64,000 nt of DNA from sequence record OQ708376.1, one strand, 5' to 3'. This document shows positions 1 to 53,322 of this stretch, piece by piece. The notes beneath the pieces were generated by a model that worked only from the letters and a program-made list of their open reading frames with translations, was not told where the DNA came from and searched no databases. The first letter of the stretch is position 1. Each line of letters begins with the position of its first letter. The position numbers were made by a program, and so were the translations under genes. This DNA comes from Escherichia phage vB_EcoM_CRJP21.

Positions 1-227
1 AAGTAGCACCACCCAAGTGGTTCACCAACTTTAAATTGTTCGGAAGGAATTTCAAAACCAATCTCATTAGGATAAAAGTTTTTACCATTCTCGCCATTCT
101 GTCCTACAACAAGACCTAAATCTTGAATTGTGTTATCTGCATAGGTTACAATTAAATGCCCAGCACCATTAATAACTAGACTTTTGATGCCGGAGTTATT
201 ACATGAACCATTAAATGAAATTGTCAT
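1..227 (-). CDS. Hypothetical protein, N-terminal part only (gene continues past window start)
   Basis: Manual translation from ATG (plus-strand CAT at 225-227) gives an open frame to position 1 (MTISFNGSCNNSGIKSLVINGAGHLIV...); not in ORF track because no stop lies within the window. Confidence 0.3.
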   Translation of the reverse strand, partial: MTISFNGSCNNSGIKSLVINGAGHLIVTYADNTIQDLGLVVGQNGENGKNFYPNEIGFEIPSEQFKVGEPLGWCY

Positions 228-337
228 AATATTTCCCTTGTATGAGTTAATGTCATATACCAATATTTATCAGTACAAAATACATTTCGTTATCATTAAT
301 AAATAAATGAAAGTTCACTACTAAAAGGGCTTAAACA

Positions 338-835
338 ATGGCATTAAGATCAAAAGACTTTCTCTTCAGAAGAAAAACAAAAGATGGTTCATGGCAAGAT
401 TTTCCTGAATCTGATAGCTGGTATCCAGCTAACTTGGATTATCACTGGAATGAACAAACGTTACCACTCGCAAGTGGTGGCTACTATGGCTGTACTACAG
501 GTTTACATACTATTTCATTTACACTACGTAATTTTATTGGTAGAATTTATGTATTAGCTACATTAGCTAGTAATCCTACTGATGATGATTGGTTTCCAAT
601 TAAATTCACTGAAAGTTGTAATTATTATCTTGAATTTACTGATATGGTTATTTTAAATCCAAATGGTGGGGATTTAATTAGACAACAAGGAACTACCGGA
701 ACATTTGCTGAAACAGTAACTGGTAATTTTACTTACCTTAAAGTTGGTATAGACCGTGATTATATTAGTAAGTATCCATCAGATGTCCAAAAAAGTTTAG
801 CTGGGAAGTTAGAACAAATTTTAATTAACTACTAA
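338..835 (+). CDS. Hypothetical protein (165 aa)
   Basis: Complete ORF, first of three tightly spaced plus-strand ORFs ending at a terminator; no recognisable motif. Confidence 0.5.
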   Translation: MALRSKDFLFRRKTKDGSWQDFPESDSWYPANLDYHWNEQTLPLASGGYYGCTTGLHTISFTLRNFIGRIYVLATLASNPTDDDWFPIKFTESCNYYLEFTDMVILNPNGGDLIRQQGTTGTFAETVTGNFTYLKVGIDRDYISKYPSDVQKSLAGKLEQILINY

Positions 836-844
836 GGATTAGAA

Positions 845-1453
845 ATGAAATTAGAAACAGAACAACCAAAACTATTTGTTAAAGGTCATGTCCTAATTAC
901 TGACGTTACTGATCCATCAAATCAAAAAATCGTTTTAGATAAATCTAACGCTATTCACCCTGAAAATATGAGTACTGCCATTGCTAATGCGTTAGCATAT
1001 AATCAAGACAGTACTGGTATTCCTATTGGTTCTATTAGCGAGATGCGTTTTGGTAATGGTGGTACAGTAGTTTTAAGTACTGGTCGTGTTACTTATAAAA
1101 AACCACGTGTTACATCATTCGGTGGTTTGTATTCACAAACATATTTGAAAAAAATCAACCCACGAATTACGGCAGGTATTGATTCACAATACAATAATAT
1201 TACAACTGTACATATACCAGGACAGTCCTATACTGATATTGTATGTATTTGTACTCTAGGGTTAGGTGAACCATCCGACCAAGGTGTAAGCTCAGGGACA
1301 AGCATGGATGGAACTTATGTATTTGATGAATTGGGATTGTACACGGATGGCGATAGTGGTATTCCTTTAACCCATATCATTTTTCACCCAGTTGAGAAAA
1401 GTGCAAACCGTGTCTTACAAATTAAATACACAGTTCGTGTACAATTACAATAA
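845..1453 (+). CDS. Hypothetical protein (202 aa), possibly virion-associated
   Basis: ORF starts 10 nt after the previous stop; Gly/Ser/Thr-rich composition; no catalytic motif. Confidence 0.5.
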   Translation: MKLETEQPKLFVKGHVLITDVTDPSNQKIVLDKSNAIHPENMSTAIANALAYNQDSTGIPIGSISEMRFGNGGTVVLSTGRVTYKKPRVTSFGGLYSQTYLKKINPRITAGIDSQYNNITTVHIPGQSYTDIVCICTLGLGEPSDQGVSSGTSMDGTYVFDELGLYTDGDSGIPLTHIIFHPVEKSANRVLQIKYTVRVQLQ

Positions 1454-1465
1454 TGGGGACATATA

Positions 1466-2566
1466 ATGAGTGTTAATTATACAATTTATAGAAGTAATGG
1501 TAGTGTTTATGCTACCATTCCAAATAATGTTATTTTAGGACCAAACCAGCCCGGAAGTAACCCAGTTCCGTTAAATTTAGTTGGTAGAAATAAAGTAAGT
1601 TACGGTCAAGCGTGGAATGAAAACTTTTTACATTTAGTTGAAAATTTCAGTTCAGCATCTGCACCACGTGGCAACGTCAATGGTCAACTTTGGTATAGAA
1701 ACACTGGTAGTACTGGTGAGTTATTGATATCATTAGTTGATAATGCTAGACAACCTGCTGATATGGTAAGTGAAGCTGAATGGGCGTCTATCCCTATGAT
1801 TACTGTTTTTAACACAGTACCTGATGGTGAAAATAGTGTTATGGGTCGTATGGTATTAACTAGTAACGGTGATTCTCTTCGTGTGTTAATGAAAAACAAA
1901 GAATGGCGTGAAATTCAAACATCTAGACCAGAAAACAAAGAGTATTCATCATTATTAGATATTAACTATGATAATGGTAAAAAATATATAGAGTTCACAC
2001 AAAGTAATAGTACTAAACCGATTGCGTATTTTAACTTAGGTGGTACTTCACAAGTAGATACAAATAACTGGACAACATTAACTAATGGTACTGGTGTCTT
2101 TGAATTTGGTAGCAACTATTTCTATGAATTAAAAATTATGATTAGAGAAGTAAATGATTCTTCTGGTGAGATAGTTTCTCTTCCATACAATTCCAAAACC
2201 TTTTTTATAAAAGGGCAATTTTATGTAGATAATCAAGGAACTTTTGTTCCTGGTTCGGTGGGGGCAAGTCAAATGCCAGACCCACGTAGGATTACACAAT
2301 TAGAATCCATTAAAGATGTTATTACCAGTAGTCGCCCAAACTGGGACGTAAATATTGTTATTAATGGTGTAGATCCATCTATCCCAAATCCTAATGGAAC
2401 ATCTAAAGCTGATTATGAAAATTGGGTTATCAATTCTCTAAACTCAAATAAAAATTTAGGTTTTCGAGTTGATGGTAGTATTAGTAATCTAACTGCTGGT
2501 GAATCCGTTAAACTACAAGCATCCGTGTTGTTAAATATTACAGGTATTCCGATTATTGGAGTATAA
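1466..2566 (+). CDS. Hypothetical protein (366 aa), possibly structural/fibre-like
   Basis: ORF followed directly by a hairpin terminator; Asn/Gly/Ser/Thr-rich composition typical of phage fibre-like proteins. Confidence 0.5.
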   Translation: MSVNYTIYRSNGSVYATIPNNVILGPNQPGSNPVPLNLVGRNKVSYGQAWNENFLHLVENFSSASAPRGNVNGQLWYRNTGSTGELLISLVDNARQPADMVSEAEWASIPMITVFNTVPDGENSVMGRMVLTSNGDSLRVLMKNKEWREIQTSRPENKEYSSLLDINYDNGKKYIEFTQSNSTKPIAYFNLGGTSQVDTNNWTTLTNGTGVFEFGSNYFYELKIMIREVNDSSGEIVSLPYNSKTFFIKGQFYVDNQGTFVPGSVGASQMPDPRRITQLESIKDVITSSRPNWDVNIVINGVDPSIPNPNGTSKADYENWVINSLNSNKNLGFRVDGSISNLTAGESVKLQASVLLNITGIPIIGV

Positions 2567-2597
2567 AAAAAGGAGCCACACGGCTCCTTTTTGTTTT
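2565..2597. terminator. Bidirectional rho-independent terminator
   Basis: A-run, stem GGAGCC (2572-2577) / GGCTCC (2582-2587), then T-run; sits between convergent genes. Confidence 0.7.
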
Positions 2598-3060
2598 AAT
2601 ATCTATATGGTAAACTGTTGACAAACTGTGTACCTTCACGTATACTTTCCCATAGTGAGTAAAAATCTTTCATTAAGTTTGTGTTAAGTAAAGTATTTTT
2701 AGCACCAGGGTGTAATGGTTTAGGCCAAGAACCAATTCTAACCCAAGCATAACCAGAGCTTTCATGATTTAAAGTTGGTACAAATTCATTCTCAACTACA
2801 ATAACAAATGAATAATATTTAAATTTACCATTTTTTGTACAAAATACATCAAACGGTATAATATCAATAATGTTAGGTATTGAGTTGCCCAACTCTTCTT
2901 TAATTTCTCGCATCAGACCTTGTAGTGGTGTTTCGTTATGTTCAAGCTTTCCACCAACAAATGCCCAGTTGTTAGAATAGGTACTTCTTTCAGAACGCAA
3001 GTTTAACATCATATGTCCAGTACTTTTTGATAAAAATATAGCACCAACCGCTTCATTCAT
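2596..3060 (-). CDS. NUDIX hydrolase
   Basis: Exact Nudix box G-x5-E-x7-REIKEELG in GGKLEHNETPLQGLMREIKEELG. Confidence 0.85.
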   Translation of the reverse strand: MNEAVGAIFLSKSTGHMMLNLRSERSTYSNNWAFVGGKLEHNETPLQGLMREIKEELGNSIPNIIDIIPFDVFCTKNGKFKYYSFVIVVENEFVPTLNHESSGYAWVRIGSWPKPLHPGAKNTLLNTNLMKDFYSLWESIREGTQFVNSLPYRY

Positions 3061-3073
3061 AACAACACCTCCT

Positions 3074-4417
3074 TTATTTGTCAGTGAAAGTTATTTTCCA
3101 ATATCCCTGACGATACACAGGCATGATACTTTTATGCCATTTAAATTTGTCATTATATCTATAATAACCATTGTCTTCTTTATTATAAATGTAATTTCGT
3201 ACAGTAGATGGATCAATTAATTGTGCACCGTCATTTGTAATTTTAAACAAATAATTTGATGGGATTTCGGTTTCTTTATAAATGATGTTATGTATACTGT
3301 TATTTACATAATATTGTTCAGGTAATGCACTTGAAAGTACTGAATCTTTCTGCACAAACCCATGTATAGTGTAATCAACAGTATAATTGGTATTATCAAG
3401 CTGTACTATAATTTTGTTGGCATCTTCATTTTCACCATACGACGCTATATGACCTTTTAGTGGGTTGTCTTCTTCAATAGATTGTTGAAATTTAATCCCT
3501 ACTTTTTTGTCATCAAAATTTGGTTCTAGATATTTAAGATATTTTTCCCATGAATATATTCCACCGTTGGGAGAAACCGCAGATAGCGATTGGCTAACCA
3601 AGGTAAGTTGGTATGTATCAGGTAAATTATACTTGGAATTAGTAATTTCTTCAACTTTAATGCATAAATTCTTGGGTGTAAAAACATCTGTTATTATATC
3701 TGAATAATTTCCCATTTCAAAATCAAATTCGTCACGAGCACCTTTAATATTTGTAGTAATCTGTTGGATTAATTTTGGTTTTTCAACAATAGCTGGTAAA
3801 GAAAACCATATTGTCGTTTCAAATGTTAAAACCATTATATCCAAATCTGGGTCAGTTCCTTGTGGAAAACCACGAGTAGAAAACTGACAATCTATTAGTT
3901 CAACATCACTAAGCGATGTCCAATCTAACGGGTTATCAGATAATTGAAGTTGTATACTAGGTGCAAACAAAGTTGAGATTTGTTCGAATAATTCCATTTT
4001 AGTTTGAGTTTGAGTTACCCAAATATTCAAATCAAACGTAAAAGTCCAAGGTACTGGGTTATGTCTTACAATTTTGTATTGTGTGTCAAGATCTTTTGTG
4101 TACTCATTAATAGCAGGGGACTTGTTAGACCCCATTACTATAGTTTCGTTGGCATTAGAACGAATATTTTTACGATCCAACTTTAGTTGATTAACACTTA
4201 TGGTCATTATAGGTGCTGATGGGAGAACATTTTCACTATTCCCATTTATAATTGCTGCTGCCATTCTTGAAATATCGGCATAGCGACATGGAACCTTTTT
4301 GTATTTTGGGTTTCCATTAGCATCAATACCATTTTGTACTTGAAATTCACCAAAAACTCTGATAAGATGTTTCAGTACTCTGCGAAATTGACCGTCATAA
4401 TAATAATCTATTTTCAT
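3074..4417 (-). CDS. Hypothetical protein (447 aa), likely virion structural
   Basis: Long ORF whose start overlaps the stop of the upstream 501-aa ORF (4414-4417); no motif recognised. Confidence 0.5.
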   Translation of the reverse strand: MKIDYYYDGQFRRVLKHLIRVFGEFQVQNGIDANGNPKYKKVPCRYADISRMAAAIINGNSENVLPSAPIMTISVNQLKLDRKNIRSNANETIVMGSNKSPAINEYTKDLDTQYKIVRHNPVPWTFTFDLNIWVTQTQTKMELFEQISTLFAPSIQLQLSDNPLDWTSLSDVELIDCQFSTRGFPQGTDPDLDIMVLTFETTIWFSLPAIVEKPKLIQQITTNIKGARDEFDFEMGNYSDIITDVFTPKNLCIKVEEITNSKYNLPDTYQLTLVSQSLSAVSPNGGIYSWEKYLKYLEPNFDDKKVGIKFQQSIEEDNPLKGHIASYGENEDANKIIVQLDNTNYTVDYTIHGFVQKDSVLSSALPEQYYVNNSIHNIIYKETEIPSNYLFKITNDGAQLIDPSTVRNYIYNKEDNGYYRYNDKFKWHKSIMPVYRQGYWKITFTDK

Positions 4418-5919
4418 TCTGTGTCCTTATGTATGCGATAAACAGTATTAGGTTTAACTGCGTCATGTAATGGAACTTTGTTATCACTATTTACAAACTG
4501 TGTAAGTGCTAAGTCTGCACCTTCCCACGGTTTTCTTCCACCATAATCAAAAATAACCCATGAATTCTTAGTTGCATTGAATTCCCATAACGTAACTGGA
4601 GTATAATCGGTGCGATAGAAATAGTCACCATCTACTGCATCAGTTGGGAACATATTTCCTTCAGGGACTGTACCTCGTGCTGGTGGAATTTTAGGACGAT
4701 AATCTTGTTGCGAATCAATATTACCATATACACAATTGGACGTGAATGGTTCATTGACATAAGTTACCTTTGGTTCCCCCCACTTGTCATCATTATACTG
4801 ATAAATGTGTGGTTCTTTATAAAAAATACAAAAATCTTCCACATCTTCTGGTGGAACATCACTGGTAGTATATTCTACATCACAATTTAACCATTTTTTA
4901 GCACTTTTATCATATTGATACAACGTATAACCTGTCACATCTGCGTCATTTTCTTTAAAGAAGAAGTCACCATCCATTGGTTTTCTGGGAAAGATGGTTC
5001 CACGCTTGACTTCCACAGAAATCCATGTATCATTAACAAACTCTTTGAGTACTGGGTATGTTTTTTTCAAAAAATACATTCCATCGGCAGGTTCTTCTGG
5101 AAAATCATAACCGTTAAGCATATATTTTGATAAATCTACTGTATCAGGTCGATCATCATACAAATGTTCGTTTGTATAATGAATATAGGGTACTTCATCA
5201 TCAGCTTGCATGATGATACGGTTCATGATATCCATTTCATTGCCATAGTTACTGTTTTCCGACGAACCATCATCGGTATTTCCATTACCATTATTAGGGT
5301 CATCTGGATTATCAGGATAATTATTGTTACCGAGTAAATCGGAGTACTCAGGTGAGTCGGTTAGCGGTTTAACTCTAAGTTTATAAATGTGATGTTGCCA
5401 CGTAACCGAGTATCCCTCAGATGTACGAAATGCATCTTGGACGACATAGAAGCGGTTTAGACCTGTATCTTTACCCAATACATCAAAATCACGTAAATTT
5501 GGTAGTTCTATCACATCCCCTGGCATGATTTTTCTACCTAAACGCTGCATCATTGTATTATAATGGATTGTGATGTCCATAGTGTTGAAATTAAAGAACA
5601 ATCCTGGGATTTTCAAGTCTGGAGTTGCTTCTTGAACTTGATAGACACAACTAAGTGTGATAGCTTCAAGGTTGTAGTTTCTGTTTGGTGTGTCACCAAA
5701 AATTAAATCGCCAATACTTGACACAACTGATCCTGAAGATGTATAATCACCTCCATAGGATAAGTCAGTGTTGTCAGCAACTTGTTTTGGACCGACATAT
5801 GCATAAAGCCACATGTCAACTCCACCAATGTTGTATTGTTCAGCAATGGCAGAATCAATGAACTTGTAATCATTGGTTCTACCTTTTTTCCACATTCTAT
5901 ATGTCATGATTGTCTCCAA
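4414..5919 (-). CDS. Hypothetical protein (501 aa), likely virion structural
   Basis: Long ORF, first gene of a minus-strand operon ending with the NUDIX gene; no motif recognised. Confidence 0.5.
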   Translation of the reverse strand: METIMTYRMWKKGRTNDYKFIDSAIAEQYNIGGVDMWLYAYVGPKQVADNTDLSYGGDYTSSGSVVSSIGDLIFGDTPNRNYNLEAITLSCVYQVQEATPDLKIPGLFFNFNTMDITIHYNTMMQRLGRKIMPGDVIELPNLRDFDVLGKDTGLNRFYVVQDAFRTSEGYSVTWQHHIYKLRVKPLTDSPEYSDLLGNNNYPDNPDDPNNGNGNTDDGSSENSNYGNEMDIMNRIIMQADDEVPYIHYTNEHLYDDRPDTVDLSKYMLNGYDFPEEPADGMYFLKKTYPVLKEFVNDTWISVEVKRGTIFPRKPMDGDFFFKENDADVTGYTLYQYDKSAKKWLNCDVEYTTSDVPPEDVEDFCIFYKEPHIYQYNDDKWGEPKVTYVNEPFTSNCVYGNIDSQQDYRPKIPPARGTVPEGNMFPTDAVDGDYFYRTDYTPVTLWEFNATKNSWVIFDYGGRKPWEGADLALTQFVNSDNKVPLHDAVKPNTVYRIHKDTE

Positions 5920-5948
5920 AATAAATCGGGTATATCTTTATTTACCTT

Positions 5949-5977
5949 GTAGACAAACCGTAAGAATGTGATATAAT
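5949..5977 (+). promoter_or_regulatory. Promoter: GTAGAC -35-like box, 17-bp spacer, TGaTATAAT extended -10
   Basis: TATAAT at 5972-5977 with TG at 5969-5970; -35-like hexamer at 5949-5954; about 40 nt upstream of the ClpA-like start. Confidence 0.45.
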
Positions 5978-6017
5978 GTTTATTAATTAGAGTGACGTGA
6001 ATCACATAGGAGAATAC

Positions 6018-8306
6018 ATGAATCTTACTCAATTGTTCAAAAAAAGCGACGAACTGGCAACATCTCTAGGTCATACATTCTTGACTATTGACCACGTAAG
6101 TGCCACAGTACTGACTATTGATAGCATCAAGAACGTATTTGAAGATATGAACATTGATGCAGACAAACTGCACAACCGCCTAATGAACTATCTTAAAAAT
6201 ACAACAGTTCCACATGCACCAAAAAGTGTTAAAGATGAAGACGCGAATCGCACTTCACTTCTAGTGAATCGCGTTGTACATGAGCTTTCTAAAAAATCAG
6301 TTATTGAACAACTAAAAAGTGATGATTTTTCGATTGATGCATATTTTGTTCTATTCGAATGTCTGTCTTTCCCTAACACAGCACTAGAAGCTGCGTTAAA
6401 AGAAGAAGGTGTTAGCTGTACTGAAGCTGCACGTGCATTACAGAAACACGTTGAGTCACTTGATAAGGGTATCAACTTACAAAGTATTAATGACGAACCG
6501 ATTGGAGATAAAAAAGTGGCCCAACAGCAGCAATCATCTAAACAAAAAGGTTTGGAAGACTATACAACGAATCTAACTGCTCTTGCAAAAGAAGGCAAAC
6601 TAGATCCTATGATTGGTCGCCAGAAAGAATTGTCTGCATTGATTGAGACTCTTGCTCGCAAAACCAAAAAGAATGCTATTCTCACTGGTGAAGCTGGTGT
6701 AGGTAAAACACAAATCATCGACGGGCTTGCACAAGCTATTGCTGATGGTAACGTACCTGAACACCTAAAAGACGTTGAAATTCTTTCACTAAATGTTGGT
6801 GCATTGACTGCTGGTACTAAGTATCGTGGTGAATTTGAAGAACGCATCGACAATTTGCTAAAAGAACTAAAGAAACGTGAAAATACTATTGTTTTCATTG
6901 ATGAAATTCATATTATGGTTGGGGCTGGTTCCGCAAGTAATGGTTCTATGGACATGAGCAATATGCTTAAGCCAGCACTTTCACGTGGTGAGATTCGTGT
7001 AATTGGTGCAACAACATATGATGAATATCGTAAAAATATCGAGAAAGATAGTGCATTAACTCGTCGTTTTATGAAAATTGACGTAGTTGAGCCGACAATT
7101 GATGAAACTCGTGCAATTGTTAATGGTTTGAAACCAACGTATGAAAAATTCCATAATGTTGAGTTCACATCTGATGCAATGGATGCTGTAATTTCTCTCA
7201 GTGATAAATTCCTGAAGAATAAGCACTTCCCAGATAAAGCAATTGATCTAATGGATGCTGCTGCGGCTAAAGTTCGTTCACGTGACAACAATAGTAAGCT
7301 TATTACTTCCAATTTGATTCAAGAAGTTGTTGCTGGTATTGCCAATTTGGATATCAACGTGGTTGCATGTACTGAAAGTGATCGTATGCGTAATCTACCA
7401 GATGCACTACGCTCACGTGTATACGGTCAAGAGGAAGCTATTCAAAAATTAGTTGATAACGTGATGGTAGCTCGTGCAGGACTGCGTGACAAATCTAGTG
7501 TTCAGGGTGCATTTATGTTTGTTGGACCATCTGGTACTGGTAAAACAGAAATTACCAAAGCATTAGCAGACGCAACTGGTGCGGAACTCATTCGCTTTGA
7601 TATGTCAGAATTTTCTCAAGAACATACTGTTTCTAAACTAATTGGTTCACCTCCAGGTTATGTTGGTCATGATTCTGGTAACGGTTTACTGTTGGATAAA
7701 ATTGAGCAGTTCCCTAATGCAGTACTGTTACTTGATGAAATTGAAAAAGCAGATCGTAAAGTACTACTAACCTTCCTACAGGTTTTGGATGAAGGTCGTC
7801 TGACTGGTTCTCAAGGTAAAACTGTATATTTTAATAACGTAACTGTTATTATGACTACAAACCTTGGTGCGGCTGATTCAACAAAGCGTAGCATTGGTAT
7901 GAGCGGTAGTGACACTGCACAGGACAAGGCAATTAAAGCATTCTTGCCACCAGAGTTTATTAACCGTATTGATAGTATCGTTACGTTTAAAGACCTAAGC
8001 AGTGAAGCTATTGACAGCATCATTGATAAGTTCATGGGTGGTTTGAATGAACAAGTCAAAGACCGTAATGTTAAAGTTACATTGACAAAAGCTGCACGTG
8101 AATGGCTTGCGAAAAATGGGGTAAAAGTTGGTATGGGTGCACGTCCAATGAAACGTACCATTGAACAAAACATTCGTGTACCACTAGCTAAAGAAATGTT
8201 GTGTGGTTCACTTGTGAATGGTGGTAACATTACATTTGATGTTATTGATGGTAAAATCGGTATTAAGCCGAAACGTACCAAAGCTGTAGATAAAGCACTA
8301 GTATAA
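6018..8306 (+). CDS. ClpA/ClpC-type Hsp100 AAA+ ATPase (two nucleotide-binding domains, no ClpB middle domain)
   Basis: Walker A GEAGVGKT and GPSGTGKT, Walker B IVFIDEIH and LLLDEIEKA, Clp-N-like N-terminus, SIGM tripeptide at the position of the ClpA IGL ClpP-docking loop. ORF track start at 5997 is GTG; ATG at 6018 has an AGGAGA RBS. Confidence 0.85.
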
Positions 8307-8343
8307 AAAAAGAAAAGGAGAGCATAATGCTCTCCTTTTTTTA
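8305..8343. terminator. Bidirectional rho-independent terminator
   Basis: A-run, stem GGAGAGC (8317-8323) / GCTCTCC (8329-8335), T-run; between the convergent ClpA-like and giant ORFs. Confidence 0.75.
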
Positions 8344-11300
8344 TTACTTAACTAATAATATATTTTTAATATCATTACCACTAACTTGTAGACTATCAGT
8401 GTATACTGAAAGATCTATAGTGTAACTATTTTGTGTGTAACGTTTTAACATATCATAATTACCTAAATTAATTCCATTGAAAGAATATGTAGTATTAAGT
8501 TTAAAATCATGTTCTGCACTATACATTACACCACGGAGTAAATTATTTGCATTTCTAACTTCAACTTTTTCATATCCAATCGATATAATATCATTCATGT
8601 TTGCGGCTGAACCGGATAAAACATTATTTCTAATACTATAAGGACTTATTGATTTAGGTTGAGAAACATAGGTTGTATTTTCTTCACTAATGGTTGTGAT
8701 GTTAGTAACAGTACCACCAACAACACCGATATACATACCGTCAACCATTGGGAATCCATAAACCCATATCCCTTCATTATTTCTAAACGGTTGAATAACA
8801 CTTGAATCATATTCGATAACGTTGATTTCTAAACTATCAGTCATTTTAGTTCTTGCCAATTCACTAAGAACTCCCGCACCCGTAATTGGTAAGTTATAAC
8901 CGTTATCGATAGTAATTCCATCAACATCAAATATTTCATTAGAGATTATCCAAACGTCAACGTCATCTGGTGTTATTCCGTCATTGTACTTACCACCATT
9001 TAAAGTAGTATCGTAGAAAACATCATAATTAATTACATCAATGGTGTAATTTCTATTTTGTTCATACAATTTAATACCATTCTTGACAAATTCAGGGTCA
9101 GCAAATGTTCTAACACGAACAATGTTCAATGCTAGAGGCTGTACTGGCTCATTTTGTTGTGCAAGAGTGATGTTATCATAACGGAGAACTGCACCAGTAC
9201 TCTCATCAATCAATTCAATCGTTTCCTTACCTGTATTTCTTACAGTGAATAGGATCGGAGTTGTATTGTTTTTGATGTTAGATACACGCAAGATTGTTTC
9301 CCATGTGTGATTTTGATATCTCACAAAATCTTCACCATCAGGAGTGAAAATCATCACCTTATCACCATCAGATAGGTCATTGTCAACTATTTCTGCTTCA
9401 GTTAAGCTATTAATAGATCTCACACGATAGAAATATTTTTCATCAAACTTCGATGTTGTTTTATTAATATCATTTTCAATCTTAGCATATGAAGGAATAC
9501 TTACAATTGCTTCTGTATGTTTATATGGATTGATAATTGCCATACCTTCAGTTTGATATCTGCTGTTATCACGTAATTGTACAAGAGATACATTGTCAAA
9601 CCCATATCCATCAACTGTAAATCTAATTTGACCTACATCACGCCCAGAAGGGTTTATGTCAGATATATCCACAATATAAGGATCAACTTCATCATCTTTA
9701 ACTTCCCATTTTATTGAAGAAGTTTGAGATTCCAATGCTAGGTTATCAAATGCATTCATATCATTGAAGTACTTAGCTTCAGTAATACTATCAAGTATAT
9801 ATTGATAATCAGAATACATTGGATTATTTTGATCTAGTGGTAAATCATCAAGATTTATTTCAGCTAGTTCAACCATTTCACCATTTGTGATAAAATAATC
9901 TTCCATGAAATCATCAATACTTTGTTCATCAGGTATACTTTGATATACACCGTTAACATTTAAGTAAACATATTTTCGTGGAATCATTGTAATTGCATAG
10001 ATATCAATTGGGGTCTTACTAAGAATCTCTTCAGCTTTTTCGTACTTATCAGTAGCGTCTTTGTCGAATAACCCTCTCATACCTGCTAATACGTGAATAG
10101 CATCAGTATAGAAACGGGTATCACCACCTACTTCATCATAACGATAAACATATACACCATACTCAACTTCAAGTTTAACTTTTACTTCATAGTCTGATGC
10201 GTCAGGATTTTTATCTTTAATTAATGAAATGTATTTTTGATACAATTCACTGCTTATTTCAAAATATCCATAGTTATAATCATTACTAGAAGAAAAGCCT
10301 AATGGAAGTCTAGTACTAGGATTGTCATTATAAGTAAGTCCACTAAATCCACATCCAACTTCATCGTGAATTTTCTCATCACTTATATCTTTATAAAGTT
10401 TCAAACGGTTTGCCAATGTGTTATACTGAACATATTGTCTAAGGTCAGTAAACATATCGTTATGCGTTGATTCTTTATAAACACGTTCCAATGTAGCAGT
10501 GAATTCATCAGTTGCTTCTAAATCTTCCGCATGGTCTTTATACCACTGGTTAACGCCATATGCTGTTCCTAGTGTTACATCCAATTCTGGATAGTAGATT
10601 TGCATTTGATAAGCAATAAGAAGATCGAAAGTTTCTTCACTATATTCTGGGAAAGAATATATATAACGTTGTAATTCATAGTTACTAACAGCATCCTTTT
10701 CATTGGATTGATATTTGTTATTAACACTTACTAATTCATTTATGCTTGCCAAATCTTCATTTGGTTTACACTGAATATTATCATAATGCATAATAATATC
10801 AATTTCTTGGAATCTTCTATTTGGTGTAACGAAATCACTTGGTAGTGAACCTACCTGTTCCCATTTTTGGGTAATTTCATTAAATTGAGCGTACTCATAA
10901 TCCCAAATATCTTTTTCAGTTTTGATCCAAGAACCATCAACGAAAATATATCCATTAGGATCTAAATCATTACATAGACCTTTTATTAAATCATCATCAG
11001 ATGTCTTTTGCTCTATTTGTGAACGAATTTTAGTTCTATAAGGTTTAACTTCTTCAAAATATTCAACAATTTGATTAATCAAATTATCGTTTGAATAGTT
11101 TTGAACTAATGATTGTTCCAAACCAACAATATAGATATATGATGTTTTAAATACCCAATCCACAACACTTTGTTCAACATGTACATATTTGACCATATCA
11201 AAAACAATTTCGCTTTGATGTAAATCGAAAGAATTTTTGAGTAAAGCTAGTGCTTTACGAACGTTGATTTCACGATTGCTTAGTGAACCATTATCATTAT

Positions 11301-14300
11301 GAACACTATAATCTGCGTAAAGCATATCATTGAGTTCAACTGTACTGTTTTCACGACCAATCGCTTTCCAATAAATTGAATCGCGTGATTGTGATTTAAT
11401 ATACAATGTCCAAATGTTTTCACTATCGGTAACTCTGATAATATCGCCAACTTGGTAGTTTTTAGTATTAGCATCTTCTAAGCTTGACTCTTGAGTATAA
11501 GTCGTGTTACTATCATATCCAACATCATACCAATCAGCATATGACCAGTACTGAGTCATGTCTAATGAGGTTCCTAGTGATTCAACATAATCAGATTGTT
11601 TAATCATTTTATGTTGTCCCTCACCTTTGTTTTCTAACGTTATAGTAACAACACTACCCGCGTTTGCTGGACTATTCATTAACTGAATATATCCATTTTC
11701 GTCGAAGTGAATAAAATAAACAGCACTAGAAGTTAATGGATTTGGTAGATATCCACTAGTACTTAAAATAACAGCGTCATTTTCTTTAAATTTATCACTT
11801 TCAACTGCAATAACTAATTCATTATTGTAAGACAACACACGGAAAGAAACTTCATTAGGGTTAACTTCAGTGGTTTTAACATTAAACACATCTTCCATAA
11901 CAACACTATTAGTGGTTATGTTTTGTGACCTATAATAATTATTAGCACTTTCTACAAAGTTTCTACGAGCTTCTATAACATTTTGGAACCAAGTTTTGTT
12001 TGATCCTAAACCGTTATCAACATCTGGATATAATAAATTAATCACAGAACCTGATTCAGTTGTTTCTTGACCAATTAGTGAGTTCCACATTGAATCCCAA
12101 ATTAGTGGGTTAAAGTTATAGCTGTCACCTTCTTTACATAGTTGATACTGGTCATGTTTAACAACTTCAGTACTATCCATGTAATAAGAAACAGTTAAAA
12201 TACTGGTATCATCATTCACTTTAAATTGCATATTACTAAGAATAAACGAGTTTTCATTTATTGGAGCGAACCAAGGAATGTTTAGCTGTGTTGGATCTTT
12301 AATAATACGAGCAATGTCAGTACATGATTTCGTTCTGGTATGTAGTGGTGGTACATAAATTGTATCACGTACCCAGAAATAGTATTTTGTTACATAACTA
12401 TCAGTTGAACTATCATATTCCAAAAATGTACTATAATTATCTTCAAGTGCAGTTCCACTTGGTAGATACATAGTATTATTTTTGTTTTTCTTAGCAACAT
12501 CTTTACAGTATTTGTCCCAGTTATATGGCTCAACTGGTGAACAAACCCACTCTAACACATCAATGGTACTATGTGGTAACAAACGGCCCCAGTTGTAACG
12601 TTTGTATTCATTGGTTGCATCAATATCAACATTACCGTCTGCGTCATAAATTGCACGAGTATAATCCAAATAAAATGCAGTGCTAGTGTTCCACCATACT
12701 TGACCAACTTTATCAGCACCCCAAGCCTGGATTAACTCTCCATTACTATTATACTGTGCAGGATCAACTGGTGAAGTATATGTTACGTTTTGCATAGCCG
12801 CACCTGGAATAACACCATTAATTGGGTCATAAACGTTTAGATATAGCTCAGTAATGTTAGTACGTTCATCATATGTCGTTGGACGATCAAATAAAGTACT
12901 TTGTGGTGCTTTAAAACTATATTTCTTGTCAATGTAAGCTTGACGATCATCAGTACTGGCAAAACGTGATACATAACGATACAAACGTGGACGTGTATCT
13001 GGATCAGTAAATTCAATATCAATAGAAGTGTCAAATGGAACTACCATAACTTTAGGATCAGAACCAGCAGTATAATATTGACTTTCTACTGTTAAAGTAT
13101 CTGGCATAAAGTTAGTTTCATCAACAAAATAATAATAATCACCATCTTCAAGTGGTACATTATCAGTTAAAGTTACTTTACAAAATTGTTCAGCATACAC
13201 ATCGGTATTTTCAATAGGTGTTATAGAAACCATTTGTACATTAGTATCAACCAATTCAAAAATGTTCCACAAACCATTACCGTCTTTAAACATCCACACA
13301 GATTCAGGATTTTCACCTTTACCATTAGTATAAGTTATGCGGTCATTATATGCAGTACTGAAATCTTTTGTTGTGTACGATACTTCATCCAATGTTACTG
13401 GACCAATATCTGGAAGTTGGATGTTTTCACTTCTTCCACTACGCATTGGGAATGAGAACTTACCATTTGGACGTGTAATCCAACGAGGATCTTTACCTTG
13501 CTCACCGAAGTATACAATATGATTACCATTACCATTTGAAGTTGCATTTACATCAAAAGAAACCATTTGAGGTTGTTGTTTAAATTGGTCATTGATTAGT
13601 TTAAATTGAAGGTTTTTCTTACCATCAATATTACCATATGTACCAATTTTAAATGCCCATTCTTGTAATGCTTTATATTCATCAGTGTCATATGATTTAG
13701 AAACACGAAGTACACGTTCTAAAACTTGGTTAGTACCTTTATCGTGAATGAATCCTTTATAGAAATCAACACGACTAACATCACTACTAATCATACGCTG
13801 TAGATAATCACGAGATTGATAACCAATCAAATGGTTTGACAACTCTTGTAATTGTACATCACTTACTGGAGTTTCACTATCATAATAATGTTGGAAATCC
13901 GACACTAATTTTTCAAATGATGGTAGTGTTCCAGCTTCCAAGATAATAAATCCAGGAGCTTGTAGGCGACCAGTCCATGAACCAGTAATATATCCATACA
14001 TTTTAATTAGTTCTTGAATAGAACCATATGTTGGCTGATAAATGTAATCACCAAAAATAGTTTTATCATCAAAAATAACAGCATGTTCATATGAACACAA
14101 ACTTAAACGAATCAATGCAATGCGTTTATTAGATTCTAAAGTTCTAACAGTGAAGATATTTCCAATACGAGAAGTTTCAATTTCATATTGGCGAATACCT
14201 TGGTTATTATCATCAAGTAATGACCATACACCACCATTATTTTGCGTAATAGATTGTACTGAACCAAAGTCTGCCCCAAATTTAGCGTTTGCAGCACTTG

Positions 14301-17300
14301 GGGTACAAGAAATAAATTCACCAGTTACTAGAGAATTCTGACTCCAGATCACGAAATCTTTAGCAATAGTGTTCCAATCTTGTTGAGCACCACTATCATT
14401 TACATCTTCAAAAATCCAACCATGTTCTTTAAGATATTCACCATATCCACAAATAAAAGTATAAACTTCTTGGTAACTATTGAAAACTTTACCATATTCA
14501 ATTGAAGCTTCAGACTTCCATTCATTATAATGAACAACATTACGGTTTTCCAATTTAAGAGTTACTTTTCTACCATTTTTTACTGGAAGTTTATATTTAA
14601 ATTTAGCACCAACTAGATCATATCCATCAATCTGATATGCACTACCATTCCAAGTAATTTTGATCGCACTCATTTGCTCATCACGGATATTATTAGAACG
14701 AACAAGACCAATGGTTTGGTTTTCTTGTGAAATAAGACCGAAAGATTTAGCATTGAATGTTAGCTGATCTGCTTTAGTAAATCCTCCAATTTTATGACCA
14801 ACATTTATATAAGAAGAACGAACTACATCCCCATACTTGGTGGTAATATTTTTATTTTGATACATCAAATGGTCACTTACAAACATTTGATAACCAATTG
14901 TTCTTGTGCTATTTTCACCATGAACTACTGTATTTTTATCAAAATTAATACGCTTACGTGTATCACCATAAAGGAATTGTGAACCATCAGTGAATACTTC
15001 TTTTAAGTTATCGTTGCGGGTATCCCAGAAATAGTTAGCAAATTGTGCTGGTTTAGCTTTATACAAAAGCATCATTTGGTCATATGCAAACAATGTAGTG
15101 TTCATGTATGTAAATTCCATGTCACCCATATCACCATATGTCCAAGGTTCTGCTCTATGATTTAAAGATCCAGACACTAAACCTAAAATTTCAGGTGCAA
15201 TATATTCAACCACACAAATATCAATACCAGAAGATGTTTTATTTCCAGTTTTTGTAATTTTGAATGGCTGTACACCAAATCTTTTATATTTGTCATATTG
15301 ACCACGACGATCACCAAATAAAATAGTTCCAGTACTGCTATCTCCAATAGTTCCGTCAATATCCCAAAGACCACTAGGAACTAAATCACCTTGCTCATTC
15401 ATAACAAGTGCTTCATATACATATACAACATCACTATCACGTTCACCAACTTGAACAGCCGTTGGTTCGTATTCTTGGTTCCACCAAGTTGGACGTTGTG
15501 TAAAGCCAAACATTTCCCACGGATGGGTAGCTGGGCGATATGTACCATATTGGTCAGTGTAAATGGCACGCCATGAACCACGTGCAGGAATTTCAGTACT
15601 TTGACCATTAACTACATAATAAGTGCCAGTATAGTTCCAAGTTCTCCAATTGTTAGGATCATAATCATGTGTACTATTACTGATACCATTAGTTGCGGTG
15701 AAGTTAATGTATCCACGTAGTAATAATGTTTGTTTCTCTTCAGCACTATATTCAGTTTTAGTGAAATATGGTGTAGGGAAAAGGTCATCACTATTCAATA
15801 CTGGTACGTAATCAACATCTTTGAATTTATTATCAATACTATTAAAAATTCTATTTTCTAATTCATATACAACATCATCCATTTTATCAACACCATTGAT
15901 AACACGGTATGCTTTGGAAATAATACCAGTATGACTGATGTTATAACAGCTTGGTTTACTACCAGCAGTGAGGAATGTCGCTTTTTCTGGTACATATGCT
16001 TGAAGAATACCTAAGAACTGTGGTGTTGGTGGTATAAATGCACGAATGAATCCAGAAGTACTTCCAACATTATCATAATAGAATGGGAATGAACTATCAC
16101 GTCCCATATTAATAGTAGTTAAAATTGCATCAACAATGTTTGCAGCACTATTTTGTAAAAAGTCTGATGGATTTTCATCATACATACGAAGCATTTGTGT
16201 ATTAAATTTATTAATGAATCTAAAATATTCAGATTGCATAAACATAGTTGCTTCAAACAAATCAATATCTTCATTTGCAGTATGTGCCATCAATGGAAGC
16301 ATAGATGCTTCATTTTGGATAATTTTAGTACCTACGCCATTATTAACCAATCCTTTAGCCAAACGTTCTTCATAGTCATTGAAATCATCAGAAGAACCAC
16401 GTGTAATGTTCTTTTGAATAATATCCTGAAAATGTAAAGTGTAGTCACCTTGGTTAATGTATATAATATTAGAATTATATGGGTTATTTTGTAGGTTGAT
16501 TGGAACTTCATATGCACCTAATTCTTTATTAGGAGTTACAGTACTGCTATAAGTTCTAATTTGAATAACAGAATCTTCATCCAATTCTACAGTACTATCT
16601 AGAGTGATGCTTTGTACTTGACCTTTTGAAACATTTTTGGTATATTTGGACACATCAACACCATCAACCACAACTTCAATAATATCAGAATCATTATCTA
16701 AAACTTTTTGTGCCAATTCGAATGTATGGTCATATTTTACAATCTGAACACCATCACCAGTAATTGGATGCCAATCTAGATAAGTTTCACGGTCAGCTTT
16801 ATAGTACTGATATGTTCTATCAACTTCAATAACATATGCATACATACCATCAACTGGTTCTTTAAAAACTTCCATATCATAAACAGTACTGAATACACGA
16901 TACATATCAGTACGTTGGACTTGTGGAGTTTGTTTTACAAATTGTTTAGAGTACTCTTCTGAACGAACCCAATCGGTTTGAAGATTCATTTCATTATTTT
17001 CATCAATAATGTTATAATAGTATAAACCATCAATTTCAACTTCTTTTCCAAGATGGTCATAGGTATAACGTTGGGATTGTAAAAAGTTTTCATAAATGTA
17101 ATAATTATAATCACCAAGTTCAATGTTATATCCATATACACTATCAGTTGCATAGTTGTAATTTATTTTAAAACCAAACAACTCTGAACCTTTAAAGTTA
17201 CTTGATGGATATGTAGTACTGTTGTCAAGTTTGATACCATTACGATCATAAAGTTGGAATTTAGGGAATACGTTAACACTAGTTTTTGATTGTGCACGAA

Positions 17301-21856: not shown

Positions 21857-21923
21857 AATTTATTCCTTTAAATCAGTAAAGTACTAGTTCAGTACTGGGA
21901 ATTATATATAGAAATATTTATTC

Positions 21924-33532: not shown

Positions 33533-33562
33533 AATTCCTCACCAAACTATTTGTTATCAAAA

Positions 33563-33570
33563 TATTTATA
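33563..33570 (-). promoter_or_regulatory. T4-type late promoter motif TATAAATA (minus strand)
   Basis: Plus-strand TATTTATA at 33563-33570, about 30 nt upstream of the endo VII-like start codon. Confidence 0.4.
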
Positions 33571-33623
33571 GATTAGTTATTTGCAATATTTTAAGTACTT
33601 AATGAATATTTTTATAAAAATAG

Positions 33624-33652
33624 TGAGACAACTTTAAAGTTTGTGCTATAAT
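33624..33652 (+). promoter_or_regulatory. Promoter: TGAGAC, 17-bp spacer, TGcTATAAT
   Basis: TGAGAC at 33624-33629, TATAAT at 33647-33652 with TG at 33644-33645; no protein-coding ORF downstream. Confidence 0.5.
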
Positions 33653-33659
33653 GTTTGTT

Positions 33660-34107
33660 GTAGTAATGACAATCCTGTTGAATGCAGAAATGCATATAAA
33701 TTAGAACCTGATCCTATCGAAAATGTAGATGGCAGATGAGCAGTTCAACAGTGCGATGAGCAAAAGAAACCCGTTAGATGTGGGCATAGTTTGAACCCCT
33801 CACGGCAATGCGGCTCAATAAAGAACTCCGATAAGCATACAGAGAGTTCCTCGATAGACATATAAGGATCGCACCTTACCAGATTTGCTAAGGGAGTTTA
33901 TTAAGTGATTTTAATAAACAGCCTGAAGTTTGATTGTATAGACTTTCAGGTGAGTGTCAGGATGATTAAGACTGACGACCGTTGCACATGACTGCGATAG
34001 AGAGAAACAGAGCAACCCGCTTTCGTTCTTAATATATTTTTAAGAAATTCGCAATACAATAAATGCTGAAACCATCAGCGTCAAGAAATAGAGACTTCAT
34101 TGTCTCT
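33660..34107 (+). ncRNA. Candidate structured non-coding RNA (about 450 nt, unknown class)
   Basis: Bounded by the promoter at 33624-33652 and an intrinsic terminator at 34090-34112; no ORF above about 20 codons on either strand; several internal hairpins; visibly less AT-rich than flanks. Confidence 0.35.
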
Positions 34108-34114
34108 TTTTTAT
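34088..34114 (+). terminator. Rho-independent terminator
   Basis: Stem AGAGAC (34090-34095) / GTCTCT (34102-34107), loop TTCATT, T-run 34108-34112. Confidence 0.7.
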
Positions 34115-34329
34115 TGTCTTCATTCCCCTGCGGGGGGATGAAAATGTCCTCAACAAATCCCGTCAAGTATTAAATCTTTTAAAGTTCTTTATAATTAATT
34201 TAATTAAATGAATATGAGTTACGTAGTAACGAATATTCTTCAGCTAACGAATGAAATGAGTTAGATGAATCCAATAATATTAAAATTAATCCTTTCATAA
34301 TTCAATTCAAATAATTCTGTAGTTTAAAA

Positions 34330-34360
34330 CCAAAAAAAAAACCAGCAACAATGTGCTGGC
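34330..34360 (-). terminator. Rho-independent terminator (minus strand)
   Basis: Stem CCAGCA / TGCTGG (34342-34359) preceded on the plus strand by a 10-A run (T-run on minus), just downstream of the minus-strand operon. Confidence 0.65.
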
Positions 34361-34370
34361 TATATGAAAA

Positions 34371-40773: not shown

Positions 40774-41397
40774 ATGAGTAGTATGATTCGTGAATGGTCT
40801 TCATTCAATGATTCTAAAGTTGTTTTGGAACATCGTGATAATGGATTTGGTGGGCGTGACTGCTATCTTCGTGGTATTGCTATTCAAGCCGACCAACGAA
40901 ATTTGAACGAGAGAATTTACCCTTTATCTGAAATTACAAGGGCAGTAAATAACATGAACCAGCGTTTAGCTAAAGGTGAAAGCATTCTTGTTGAATGTGA
41001 CCATCCAGAAACACTAACTATTAACCTAGACCGTGTAGCAGCAATGATTACTAAGGTTTGGATGGAAGGTGCTAATGGTATGGCAGAAATCAAACTACTT
41101 GATACTGCACATGGTCAGAATATCCGTAAAATGCTAGAGGCTGGTGTAAAACTTGGTGTAAGTTCTCGCGGTTCCGGTAACGTTGATTATAATGGAATAG
41201 TTTCTGATTTTGAAATTATCACTATTGATATTGTTGCTCAACCTAGTGCTCCAGAAGCATACCCAACAGCGGTATTTGAATCTCTGATGAGTAAGTACGG
41301 ATCACCTTGTAATAGTTCTAAAAAAATCACTGAATCTAAAAAAGTAAATAATTTAGATTCTGAAATATACGATTTTTTCAAGAAATTAAAAGGTTAA
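40774..41397 (+). CDS. gp21: Prohead core protease, gp21-like
   Basis: Matches T4 gp21 by eye: ERIYP (RLYP), GVSSRGSG (GVSSRGLG), PSAPEAYP (PSAPDAWV). Confidence 0.8.
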   Translation: MSSMIREWSSFNDSKVVLEHRDNGFGGRDCYLRGIAIQADQRNLNERIYPLSEITRAVNNMNQRLAKGESILVECDHPETLTINLDRVAAMITKVWMEGANGMAEIKLLDTAHGQNIRKMLEAGVKLGVSSRGSGNVDYNGIVSDFEIITIDIVAQPSAPEAYPTAVFESLMSKYGSPCNSSKKITESKKVNNLDSEIYDFFKKLKG

Positions 41398-53022: not shown

Positions 53023-53322
53023 ATGAAAATTAAAATGATTAATGATTACGTTCTTGTTCGACAAATTGAAGCACAGAATAAAAGTACTGGTGGTATTATT
53101 CTAGGTAATGTTGAACCACCATGTATTGGGATGGTAATTTCCGTTGGTCCAGGTAAAATTCTTCCGAACGGACAACTAGCAGAACATAATATTAAAGAAG
53201 GTGATATGGTTGTGTTTGGTCGTTCATCTTTGAACACACCACTGACTGAAGATCTTGGTGGGGGCGAAGATACATATTATGTAATGAAAATCGAAGAGAT
53301 TTTTGGTAAGAAAAATGGCTAA
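53023..53322 (+). CDS. GroES-type co-chaperonin (gp31-like)
   Basis: MKIKMINDYVLVRQIE...STGGIILG...GDMVVF parallels GroES; GGAGG RBS 8 nt upstream. The track ORF 52960..53322 shares this reading frame, but its first 21 codons run through the stop of the zinc-ribbon gene, so the ATG at 53023 (just behind the RBS) is taken as the start. Confidence 0.75.
   Translation: MKIKMINDYVLVRQIEAQNKSTGGIILGNVEPPCIGMVISVGPGKILPNGQLAEHNIKEGDMVVFGRSSLNTPLTEDLGGGEDTYYVMKIEEIFGKKNG

Follow-up and report, generated by a model that had tools for sequence, protein, structure and literature searches.

The closest described relatives of the gene studied here are the ClpAPS protease of E. coli and the Clp proteins annotated in jumbo phages. 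ClpA is highly conserved in RaK2-like phages (Attai et al., 2018), and ClpA, ClpX, ClpP and ClpS have been listed among jumbo-phage proteins (Iyer et al., 2021; PMC7824862). We analyzed a 64,000-nucleotide stretch of Escherichia phage vB_EcoM_CRJP21 (OQ708376.1), hereafter the window, which carries a clpA-like gene on the + strand near one end. As an annotation this gene family is already known, in GenBank from 2012 onward and in PHROGs: the gene is labeled ClpA in G17, Sharanji and about 50 phage records, and its best PHROGs model is PHROG 4871 (phrog_4871; 1035 bits). Orthologues in RaK2-like phages (121Q gp581/gp464/gp48, RaK2 ORF069, GAP32, CBB_235/CBB_104, phAPEC6 gp246c) are 60-100% identical, occupy the same genomic slots as the window gene and are labeled ClpA-like or Clp protease subunits. 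The window clpA is one of these RaK2-like clpA genes, with nothing essential different.

What is new here is the three-gene genome context, the promoter type common to clpA and clpP, and the joint variation of the docking surfaces alongside fixed catalytic motifs. Our preferred reading, to which we give a probability of roughly 55%, is that the window ClpA serves as the unfoldase in a ClpAPS protease encoded by the phage; ClpA would be made before the late genes, would act inside the infected cell and is not packaged. The phage set and E. coli ClpAPS have three components in common; E. coli has a clpS-clpA operon, whereas the phage Clp genes are dispersed. Agrobacterium jumbo phage Atu_ph07 resembles the window phage in having ClpA and ClpP, and also has ClpS, ClpX and ClpB; the PA5oct-like jumbo phages of Pseudomonas likewise combine ClpA with ClpP.

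The phage genome encodes ClpP and a ClpS-like adaptor

Using megablast against 50,697 phage records, we found that positions 5900..8400 of the window match Escherichia phages vB_EcoM_G17 and Sharanji over 100% of their length at 99.9% identity, and slurp01, phAPEC6, PBECO4, 121Q and others of the genus Asteriusvirus (350-370 kb) at 99.5-99.8% identity, with weaker matches in Klebsiella, Salmonella, Cronobacter and Xanthomonas jumbo phages. The window is collinear with 121Q 292240..348532 followed by 1..8440. The window phage is a RaK2-like jumbo myovirus of ~350 kb with T4-like core genes, and not a classical T4-type phage; an earlier note on this DNA, made from the letters alone, was right to set the gene apart from classical T4, but the phage itself also falls outside that type. 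Less than one fifth of such a genome lies in the window (64 kb of roughly 350 kb). Consistent with the earlier note, tblastn found no ClpP encoded in the window, and no ClpS either. The same note had called the unfoldase stand-alone, and this part failed because only the 64 kb were in view: the same genome carries a ClpP and a ClpS-like adaptor outside the window.

121Q gp464, annotated 'protease (ClpP-like)', is a genuine ClpP, and its G17 copy (289123-289815) lies about 80-85 kb from G17 clpA (201964-204252). Pfam CLP_protease matches it over its full length with 141 bits, NCBIfam cellular ClpP models score 152-155 bits compared with 51 bits for the ClpP-related head-maturation model, and the best PDB matches listed are all ClpP (best 1.4e-36), with 35% identity to E. 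coli ClpP. The catalytic triad of Ser97, His122 and Asp171 is invariant in the phage ClpP clade (67/67 members). This clade also has a 3-residue insertion before GF(I/V)DG and a conserved 17-residue C-terminal tail (consensus about EKGQYxVKRRxGxxxWV), both of which are missing from cellular ClpPs and from the ClpP of PA5oct.

In RefSeq, gp464 is labeled 'head maturation protease', probably through mis-transfer from a PHROG name. We rejected this role, given that cellular ClpP models score far higher and that a T4 gp21-type prohead protease (Peptidase_S77) is encoded in the window at 40774..41397, so that the phage ClpP is not needed for head maturation. Two further 121Q genes lie near clpP. 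The product of one, gp473, matches the ClpP fold only very weakly, and its N-terminus is hydrophobic and resembles a signal peptide by eye; as the second subunit of a ClpP1/ClpP2 pair it is unsupported (Pfam 16.7 bits, under the cutoff). The other, gp475, resembles HslV and has Thr at position 2; its model matches are all weak, and we found no HslU partner for it in the 121Q genome. Nor did we find a ClpX homologue, the only match to E. coli ClpX in 121Q being the D2 ring of ClpA.

121Q gp48, annotated 'protease adapter protein ClpS' (G17 copy, 119902-120444), was confirmed to have a ClpS core. Single-sequence searches with gp48 are weak (Pfam ClpS 24.7 bits at a cutoff of 23; PDB E = 0.17). 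A profile built from 17 members of the family matches PDB ClpS at 4e-8, and the top 36 Foldseek matches of its AlphaFold2 model (predicted local distance difference test score, pLDDT, 86) are all ClpS, with a target template-modeling (TM) score of about 0.9 and a root-mean-square deviation of 1.1 A over 83 residues. The gp48 gene directly follows that of a phage IF3 homologue and precedes one for a KTSC-domain protein. Within the 181 amino acids (aa) of gp48, the ClpS core occupies roughly residues 65-140. In place of the short flexible N-terminal extension of cellular ClpS, this core has on its N-terminal side a conserved module of ~70 aa, modeled with confidence as three strands and additional helices; on the C-terminal side comes an extra helix, also conserved, that ends in LIRxDYPxD. 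Of the E. coli ClpS residues that we take to contact the ClpA N-domain (E79, E82, K84), the alignment keeps E79 and replaces E82 with I and K84 with F. At the positions that presumably form the N-degron pocket (N34, D35, T38, H66), D35 and T38 are identical, N34 is replaced by D, and the alignment at H66 is ambiguous.

Across phage records, tblastn detected ClpA at >= 60% identity in 70 records, ClpP at >= 60% identity in 69 and the ClpS-like protein in 71. Escherichia, Klebsiella, Salmonella and Erwinia are host genera in all three lists, in which the same named phages recur, and Cronobacter, Yersinia, Pectobacterium, Serratia and Xanthomonas appear in those of the searches that list them. 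Pseudomonas is represented by 11 records in the ClpA search and 11 in the ClpP search, and PA5oct gave no ClpS-like match by tblastn at E <= 1e-4. All three Clp genes are present in G17, 121Q, RaK2/K64-1, CBB, PHA46 and GAP32. We also noted two annotation errors: the intact clpA homologue of Salmonella phage PHA46 (PP191103) has no annotated coding sequence, and that of PA5oct (NC_071039) carries the RefSeq label 'porphyrin biosynthesis'.

The window gene encodes a ClpA-type unfoldase

The coding sequence and the parts of its product are as follows; motifs were read from the sequence.

6018..8306, + strand: clpA-like coding sequence, 762 aa, ATG start, stop included; 44% identity to E. coli ClpA
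6018..6461, + strand: N-terminal domain (aa 1-148), a divergent Clp_N double repeat (Pfam, AlphaFold2)
6462..6563, + strand: flexible Gln/Lys-rich linker (aa 149-182), pLDDT < 50 at 156-176; aligns with the N-D1 linker of ClpA
6564..7352, + strand: D1 AAA+ module (Pfam AAA and AAA_lid_9)
6687-6710, + strand: D1 Walker A, GEAGVGKT
6819-6830, + strand: D1 pore loop, KYRG
6891-6911, + strand: D1 Walker B, FIDEIH
7059-7070, + strand: D1 Arg finger, TRRF
7353..8267, + strand: D2 AAA+ module with the D2-small domain (Pfam AAA_2, 168 bits, and ClpB_D2-small)
7524-7547, + strand: D2 Walker A, GPSGTGKT
7656-7667, + strand: D2 pore loop, GYVG
7725-7751, + strand: D2 Walker B, LLLDEIEKA
7860..7943, + strand: ClpP-docking helix-loop-helix (aa 615-642), homologous to E. 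coli ClpA N606-T637
7893-7901, + strand: IGM tripeptide (aa 626-628), from the alignment
7959-7973, + strand: D2 Arg finger
8136-8150, + strand: D2 sensor-2, GARPM

Pfam thus assigns Clp_N, AAA, AAA_lid_9, AAA_2 and ClpB_D2-small to the protein. The earlier description of a complete two-ring Hsp100 with intact Walker A and B motifs in both rings was borne out by Pfam and by the alignment, in which all motifs are present, and the ATPase motifs are essentially invariant across 114 members of the phage ClpA clade. The N-domain is the part least conserved relative to E. coli ClpA: Clp_N scores 21.7 bits at a cutoff of 20.7 and covers one repeat only, and AlphaFold2 models eight helices that form two four-helix repeats.

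The top NCBIfam model is that of ClpA (TIGR02639, 755 bits), which matches in a single stretch over residues 9-747 of the 769-aa translation from an upstream GTG. Models of ClpB, ClpV, ClpK and ClpG match only in two separate pieces, and the protein has no insertion relative to ClpA; it therefore lacks a middle domain, as the earlier note had stated. E. coli ClpA is the first PDB match (phmmer, 4e-180), and the AlphaFold2 model of the window protein (pLDDT 80) superposes on the ClpA chains of ClpAP cryo-electron microscopy (cryo-EM) structures with TM scores of 0.88-0.89. The resemblance to E. coli ClpA extends to the domain order (N, D1, D2), the missing middle domain (M-domain), all ATPase and pore motifs and the position of the docking loop. 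The AAA+ D1/D2 core is also common to ClpB/Hsp104 (ClpB models, 634 bits) and ClpC, and ClpC and ClpB structures are likewise strong Foldseek matches. With the M-domain absent, identity as ClpB, ClpC or ClpV was rejected, and of the earlier ClpA/ClpC label only the ClpA half stands. Compared with ClpB/Hsp104, the window protein is without the coiled-coil middle domain and has a docking loop, which ClpB-type chaperones lack. By these comparisons the window protein classifies as a ClpA-type homologue, an outlier rather than a certified equivalog. Hexamer formation, ClpP binding and ATP-dependent degradation are predicted for it from homology.

The docking loop of ClpA and the pocket of ClpP

In the alignment, phage KRSIGMSGS pairs gap-free with E. 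coli RKSIGLIHQ, in which IGL is residues 617-619, and the docking-loop position claimed for IGM therefore holds. The AlphaFold2 model agrees: D2 strand 608-614 and helix 634-642 have between them a surface loop, residues 624-630, modeled with low confidence. Compared with E. coli ClpA, the phage loop reads IGM instead of IGL, continues with SGS instead of IHQ and is 2 residues shorter. ClpA I620, H621 and Q622 are further ClpP contacts in the ClpAP cryo-EM structure (bioRxiv 10.1101/820209), and the alignment shows changes at four contact residues (L619M, I620S, H621G and Q622S). The docking helix-loop-helix is full-length in 114/114 ClpA clade members, most of which keep a hydrophobic-Gly-hydrophobic tripeptide. 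The tripeptide itself varies by lineage:

Asteriusvirus: IGM
Close relatives of Asteriusvirus: LGL, IGA
RaK2: IGV
Contigs without lineage assignment: IGG
Salmonella 7t3/PHA46 group: MSM, MNM
GAP32, CBB and XbC2: LGM, MGM
XaC1: VGF

The pocket on the ClpP side varies as well. In E. coli ClpP it is lined by L48, F49, A52 and F82 of one protomer and by L23, Y60, Y62, I90, M92, F112, L114 and L189 of the adjacent one (bioRxiv 10.1101/820209). In the phage ClpP clade, position 60 is T in 58/67 members, position 82 is N or S, and position 114 is G in 63/67. The phage ClpP differs from that of E. coli by Y60T, F82S, F112L and L114G, with the same fold and triad. In PA5oct, whose ClpA and ClpP are 41% and 33% identical to the phage proteins described here, the canonical loop IGF occurs together with a more canonical, aromatic ClpP pocket (Y82, Y112) and a ClpP without the C-terminal tail.

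We compared loop and pocket in 13 pairs, made up of 12 phage pairs linkable to one genome and the E. coli pair. Leu112 accompanies a Met loop tip in 8/9 pairs, and where the tip is V, F or L, residue 112 is aromatic in 4/4. This covariation is only suggestive, since the pairs are few and phylogenetically non-independent.

The earlier note had reasoned from the missing ClpP that the phage ClpA might dock through IGM onto host ClpP and redirect proteolysis. That step is unsupported, given that the phage has its own ClpP and that four of the loop contacts are changed. As a reading in its own right, host docking, whether exclusive or in addition to phage ClpP (for example in mixed complexes), seems to us unlikely, though it has points in its favor. 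The loop is rightly placed, with Ile-Gly retained and a hydrophobic residue in third position; the protein shares 44% identity with E. coli ClpA, and its model fits onto the ClpA chains of ClpAP complexes; and host ClpP is abundant when infection begins. The tripeptides IGM, LGL, IGV, MNM and LGM differ, however, even though the ClpP of enterobacterial hosts is nearly constant, which is hard to explain by docking onto the host enzyme; with a near-constant host ClpP and a varying phage loop, co-evolution with phage ClpP fits better. Moreover, the phage owns an intact ClpP under the same promoter type as clpA, and because the same genome encodes both ClpP and a ClpS-like adaptor, docking onto host ClpP is no longer needed. 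On the adaptor side, host docking is favored by the proposal that phage ClpS feeds host ClpAP (Iyer et al., 2021; PMC7824862).

A bolder form of the phage-encoded ClpAPS reading, which we consider tentative and clearly less probable than the general one, is that RaK2-like phages possess an orthogonal, self-contained ClpAPS that is insulated from host ClpA, ClpX and ClpP by a rewired interface and has a phage-specific substrate range set by its three-module adaptor. The rewiring would consist of Met-tipped or other non-canonical loops facing a pocket without the aromatics at 60 and 82 and without Leu114, together with the new C-terminal tail.

Transcription signals, expected timing and absence from virions

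The signals around clpA are as follows.

5950..5977, + strand: putative sigma70-like promoter with an extended -10, scoring 11/12 in a consensus scan; -35 TAGACA (5950-5955), 16-nt spacer ending TGA, -10 TATAAT (5972-5977)
6008..6013, + strand: ribosome-binding site AGGAGA, 4 nt 5' of the ATG, read from the sequence
8313..8339, both strands: bidirectional intrinsic terminator hairpin (AAAAGGAGAGC-ATAAT-GCTCTCCTTTT) with a 12-bp stem and T-runs on both strands

The longest open reading frame (ORF) at this locus, 5997..8306 (+), begins with GTG; we rejected this start in favor of the ATG at 6018, which follows the ribosome-binding site and is the start annotated in G17 and phAPEC6. The gene is monocistronic. 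The promoter and terminator that the earlier note had given it were both recovered, and 5950..5977 presumably functions as a promoter. Sigma70-like sites also lie 5' of clpA in RaK2, CBB and PA5oct, with the TGn extended -10 in RaK2 and CBB, and matching hairpins lie 3' of clpA in all three. The G17 record has a terminator annotated at the hairpin site (ARNOLD, -13.0).

In 121Q, the pattern GACA-N13-TGnTATAAT occurs in 19 copies, compared with 0.3 expected, all on the + strand. It stands 40 nt upstream of clpA (TAGACA-N13-TGATATAAT) and 34 nt upstream of clpP (TGGACA-N13-TGATATAAT), and also 5' of the genes for the single-stranded DNA-binding protein (SSB), the primase and the late sigma factor. 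Several structural genes in the window, including those for the scaffold and the major capsid protein, have instead the T4-late-like TATAAATA. Twelve perfect TTGACA-17-TATAAT sites all lie on one 121Q strand, and TATAAATA is found on both (8 and 9 copies). The site upstream of CBB clpA resembles the divergent RpoD-like promoter type that, according to the CBB authors, goes with DNA-synthesis genes and the gp55-like sigma factor. Since clpA shares its promoter type with replication genes, the late sigma factor gene and clpP, it would be expected to be expressed before the late structural genes. The early-class promoter of the earlier note is thus roughly right in being of a non-late type, and is more exactly described as a replication-gene promoter type.

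ClpA is missing from the virion lists of two relatives. In phAPEC6, gp246c (ClpA) is absent among the 62 virion proteins detected, with gp245 and gp248 listed, and CBB_235 (ClpA) is absent from the virion mass spectrometry list, with CBB_234 and CBB_236 listed; in both phages, therefore, the products of the genes on either side of clpA were detected.

A promoter of the clpA/clpP type (GACAACTTTAAAGTTTG-TGC-TATAAT, about 33629-33654, +) was also seen in an ORF-free gap of ~840 nt at window 33533..34370. It is followed by ~450 nt of GC-richer sequence and a terminator-like hairpin with a T-run at about 34088-34118. A second ORF-free gap, at 121Q 192836-193036, likewise follows this promoter type and shares 85% identity with positions 33700-33899. 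The fold z-score of the gap is -2.65, and it contains no Rfam family at the gathering score and no tRNA; Rfam and tRNA scans of the window as a whole also found nothing. From these features, the gap is a candidate for a phage non-coding RNA with two paralogous copies.

The clpA slot among structural genes

As the earlier note described, clpA sits between structural operons, on the strand opposite to both neighbors. On one side is an operon with a T4 gp15-like tail sheath stabilizer; on the other is a convergent 3333-aa ORF at 8344..18345 (-), for which the hairpin at 8313..8339 serves as a common 3' end with clpA. Homologues of the 3333-aa protein have been found in virions, namely phAPEC6 gp245 (382 kDa, 17 peptides) and CBB_236 (21 peptides). 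The slot is identical in RaK2 and CBB, and in PA5oct clpA lies downstream of a DnaJ-like gene, among structural genes.

This layout bears on the possibility that ClpA acts independently of ClpP, as a chaperone or unfoldase for virion proteins such as the adjacent 3333-aa protein, itself remaining unpackaged. E. coli ClpA has chaperone activity without ClpP. Asteriusvirus, RaK2 and CBB all have clpA in this slot, flanked by the gp15-like tail-completion operon and the gene for the giant virion protein, the PA5oct gene has a comparable setting, GroES-like and DnaJ-like proteins are also encoded by the phage, the loop variants IGG, IGA and MSM may signal relaxed docking, and a role in virion assembly has been suggested (Iyer et al., 2021; PMC7824862). 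The conserved position is nevertheless weak evidence, because the genomes of the clade are syntenic overall. A loop of the kind that ClpB-type proteins do without is kept at full length throughout the clade, ClpP homologues are found in about as many records as ClpA (69 vs 70), and clpA has a promoter like those of the replication genes, whereas its structural neighbors have the late type TATAAATA. We therefore regard a purely ClpP-independent role as doubtful, about on a par with host docking.

The GroES-like Cpn10 gene is at window 53023..53322 (+; Pfam 61.8 bits). Outside the window, 121Q gp49, gp58 and gp457 belong to a set of annotations that cover DnaJ-like, chaperonin-like, IF3 and HPF/RaiA homologues in the genome. 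Together with the Clp trio, these make up an unusually broad proteostasis and translation toolkit for a phage.

The gene is an old resident of the phage lineage

The window gene has long been part of phage genomes, and we consider host DNA in a chimeric assembly, or a recent capture of host clpA, to be already refuted and extremely improbable. Homology to ClpA is the one point in favor of such an origin. The gene was found by megablast in the same context in at least 45 phage records at 60-100% nucleotide identity. Its GC content is 38.4%, compared with 52.6% for E. coli clpA and 34.5% for the window, its product is only 44% identical to E. coli ClpA, and megablast against 5,426 complete E. 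coli genomes gave no match. In a collection of 5.8 billion proteins, the phage ClpAs form a discrete clade of 114 clusters at >= 52% identity, with the nearest other proteins at <= 45%; set apart by this gap, clpA has therefore resided in this phage lineage for a long time.

One difference between the window and 121Q concerns a mobile element. 121Q gp584 (314112..314877), an HNH endonuclease gene with the record note 'associated with group I intron', lies between a baseplate wedge gene and a gp25-like gene. In the window this gene is absent and ~29 nt (21872..21900) fill the site, which therefore represents a presence/absence polymorphism of a mobile element.

Discussion

We propose the following mechanism for the phage-encoded ClpAPS protease. 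clpA would be transcribed alone from its sigma70-type extended -10 promoter. A hexamer of ClpA, with two intact AAA+ rings, would unfold substrates and thread them through its pore, and the IGM-tipped docking loops of D2 would reach into apical pockets on a ClpP tetradecamer. The likeliest ClpP partner is the phage's own homologue of 121Q gp464, with its intact triad. The divergent N-domain is probably the binding site of the ClpS-fold homologue of 121Q gp48, which would select or redirect substrates. The physical pairing of ClpA with ClpP and with ClpS, the timing, and the degradation of proteins during infection are what we infer from homology, co-occurrence and promoter type.

Several observations weigh against this proposal. 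All three proteins fall under NCBIfam equivalog cutoffs: the window ClpA scores 755 vs 993 bits for TIGR02639 and 654 vs 1350 for NF008263, gp464 scores 155 vs 249, and the ClpS-like protein is also below its cutoff. The three genes lie about 82-85 kb apart and form no operon, and the clpA slot kept in RaK2 and CBB is inside a structural module, beside the 3333-aa gene. With respect to docking, the canonical motif is (L/I/V)-G-(F/L) (PMC8745299), so that the third residue of IGM is non-canonical, and the tripeptides IGG, IGA, MSM and MNM of some clade members might mean that docking is weak or lost there. The loop-pocket comparison carries the limits given above, and for several of the 12 phage pairs the assignment to one genome is indirect. 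Traces of ClpP occur in virion preparations (one peptide in CBB, and a flag by electrospray ionization tandem mass spectrometry in PA5oct), and this weak detection hints at a morphogenetic role for ClpP. Finally, we found no functional study of a phage-encoded ClpA or ClpP in the literature and no experiment on any of the three proteins, and Clp proteins are not treated in the papers on Sharanji, G17, phAPEC6 and PA5oct.

If the ClpAPS reading is correct, a complete set of unfoldase, peptidase and adaptor would give this lytic phage host-independent control of protein turnover in the cell that it infects. An interface without cross-talk to host ClpP would, if true, provide a natural orthogonal degradation module for synthetic biology, and the targets of such an orthogonal machine could be, for example, host defense or housekeeping proteins removed in the course of takeover. 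A machine of this kind would also bear on host takeover, on the removal of defense proteins, and on the quality control of at least 600 proteins, including virion components of 380 kDa.

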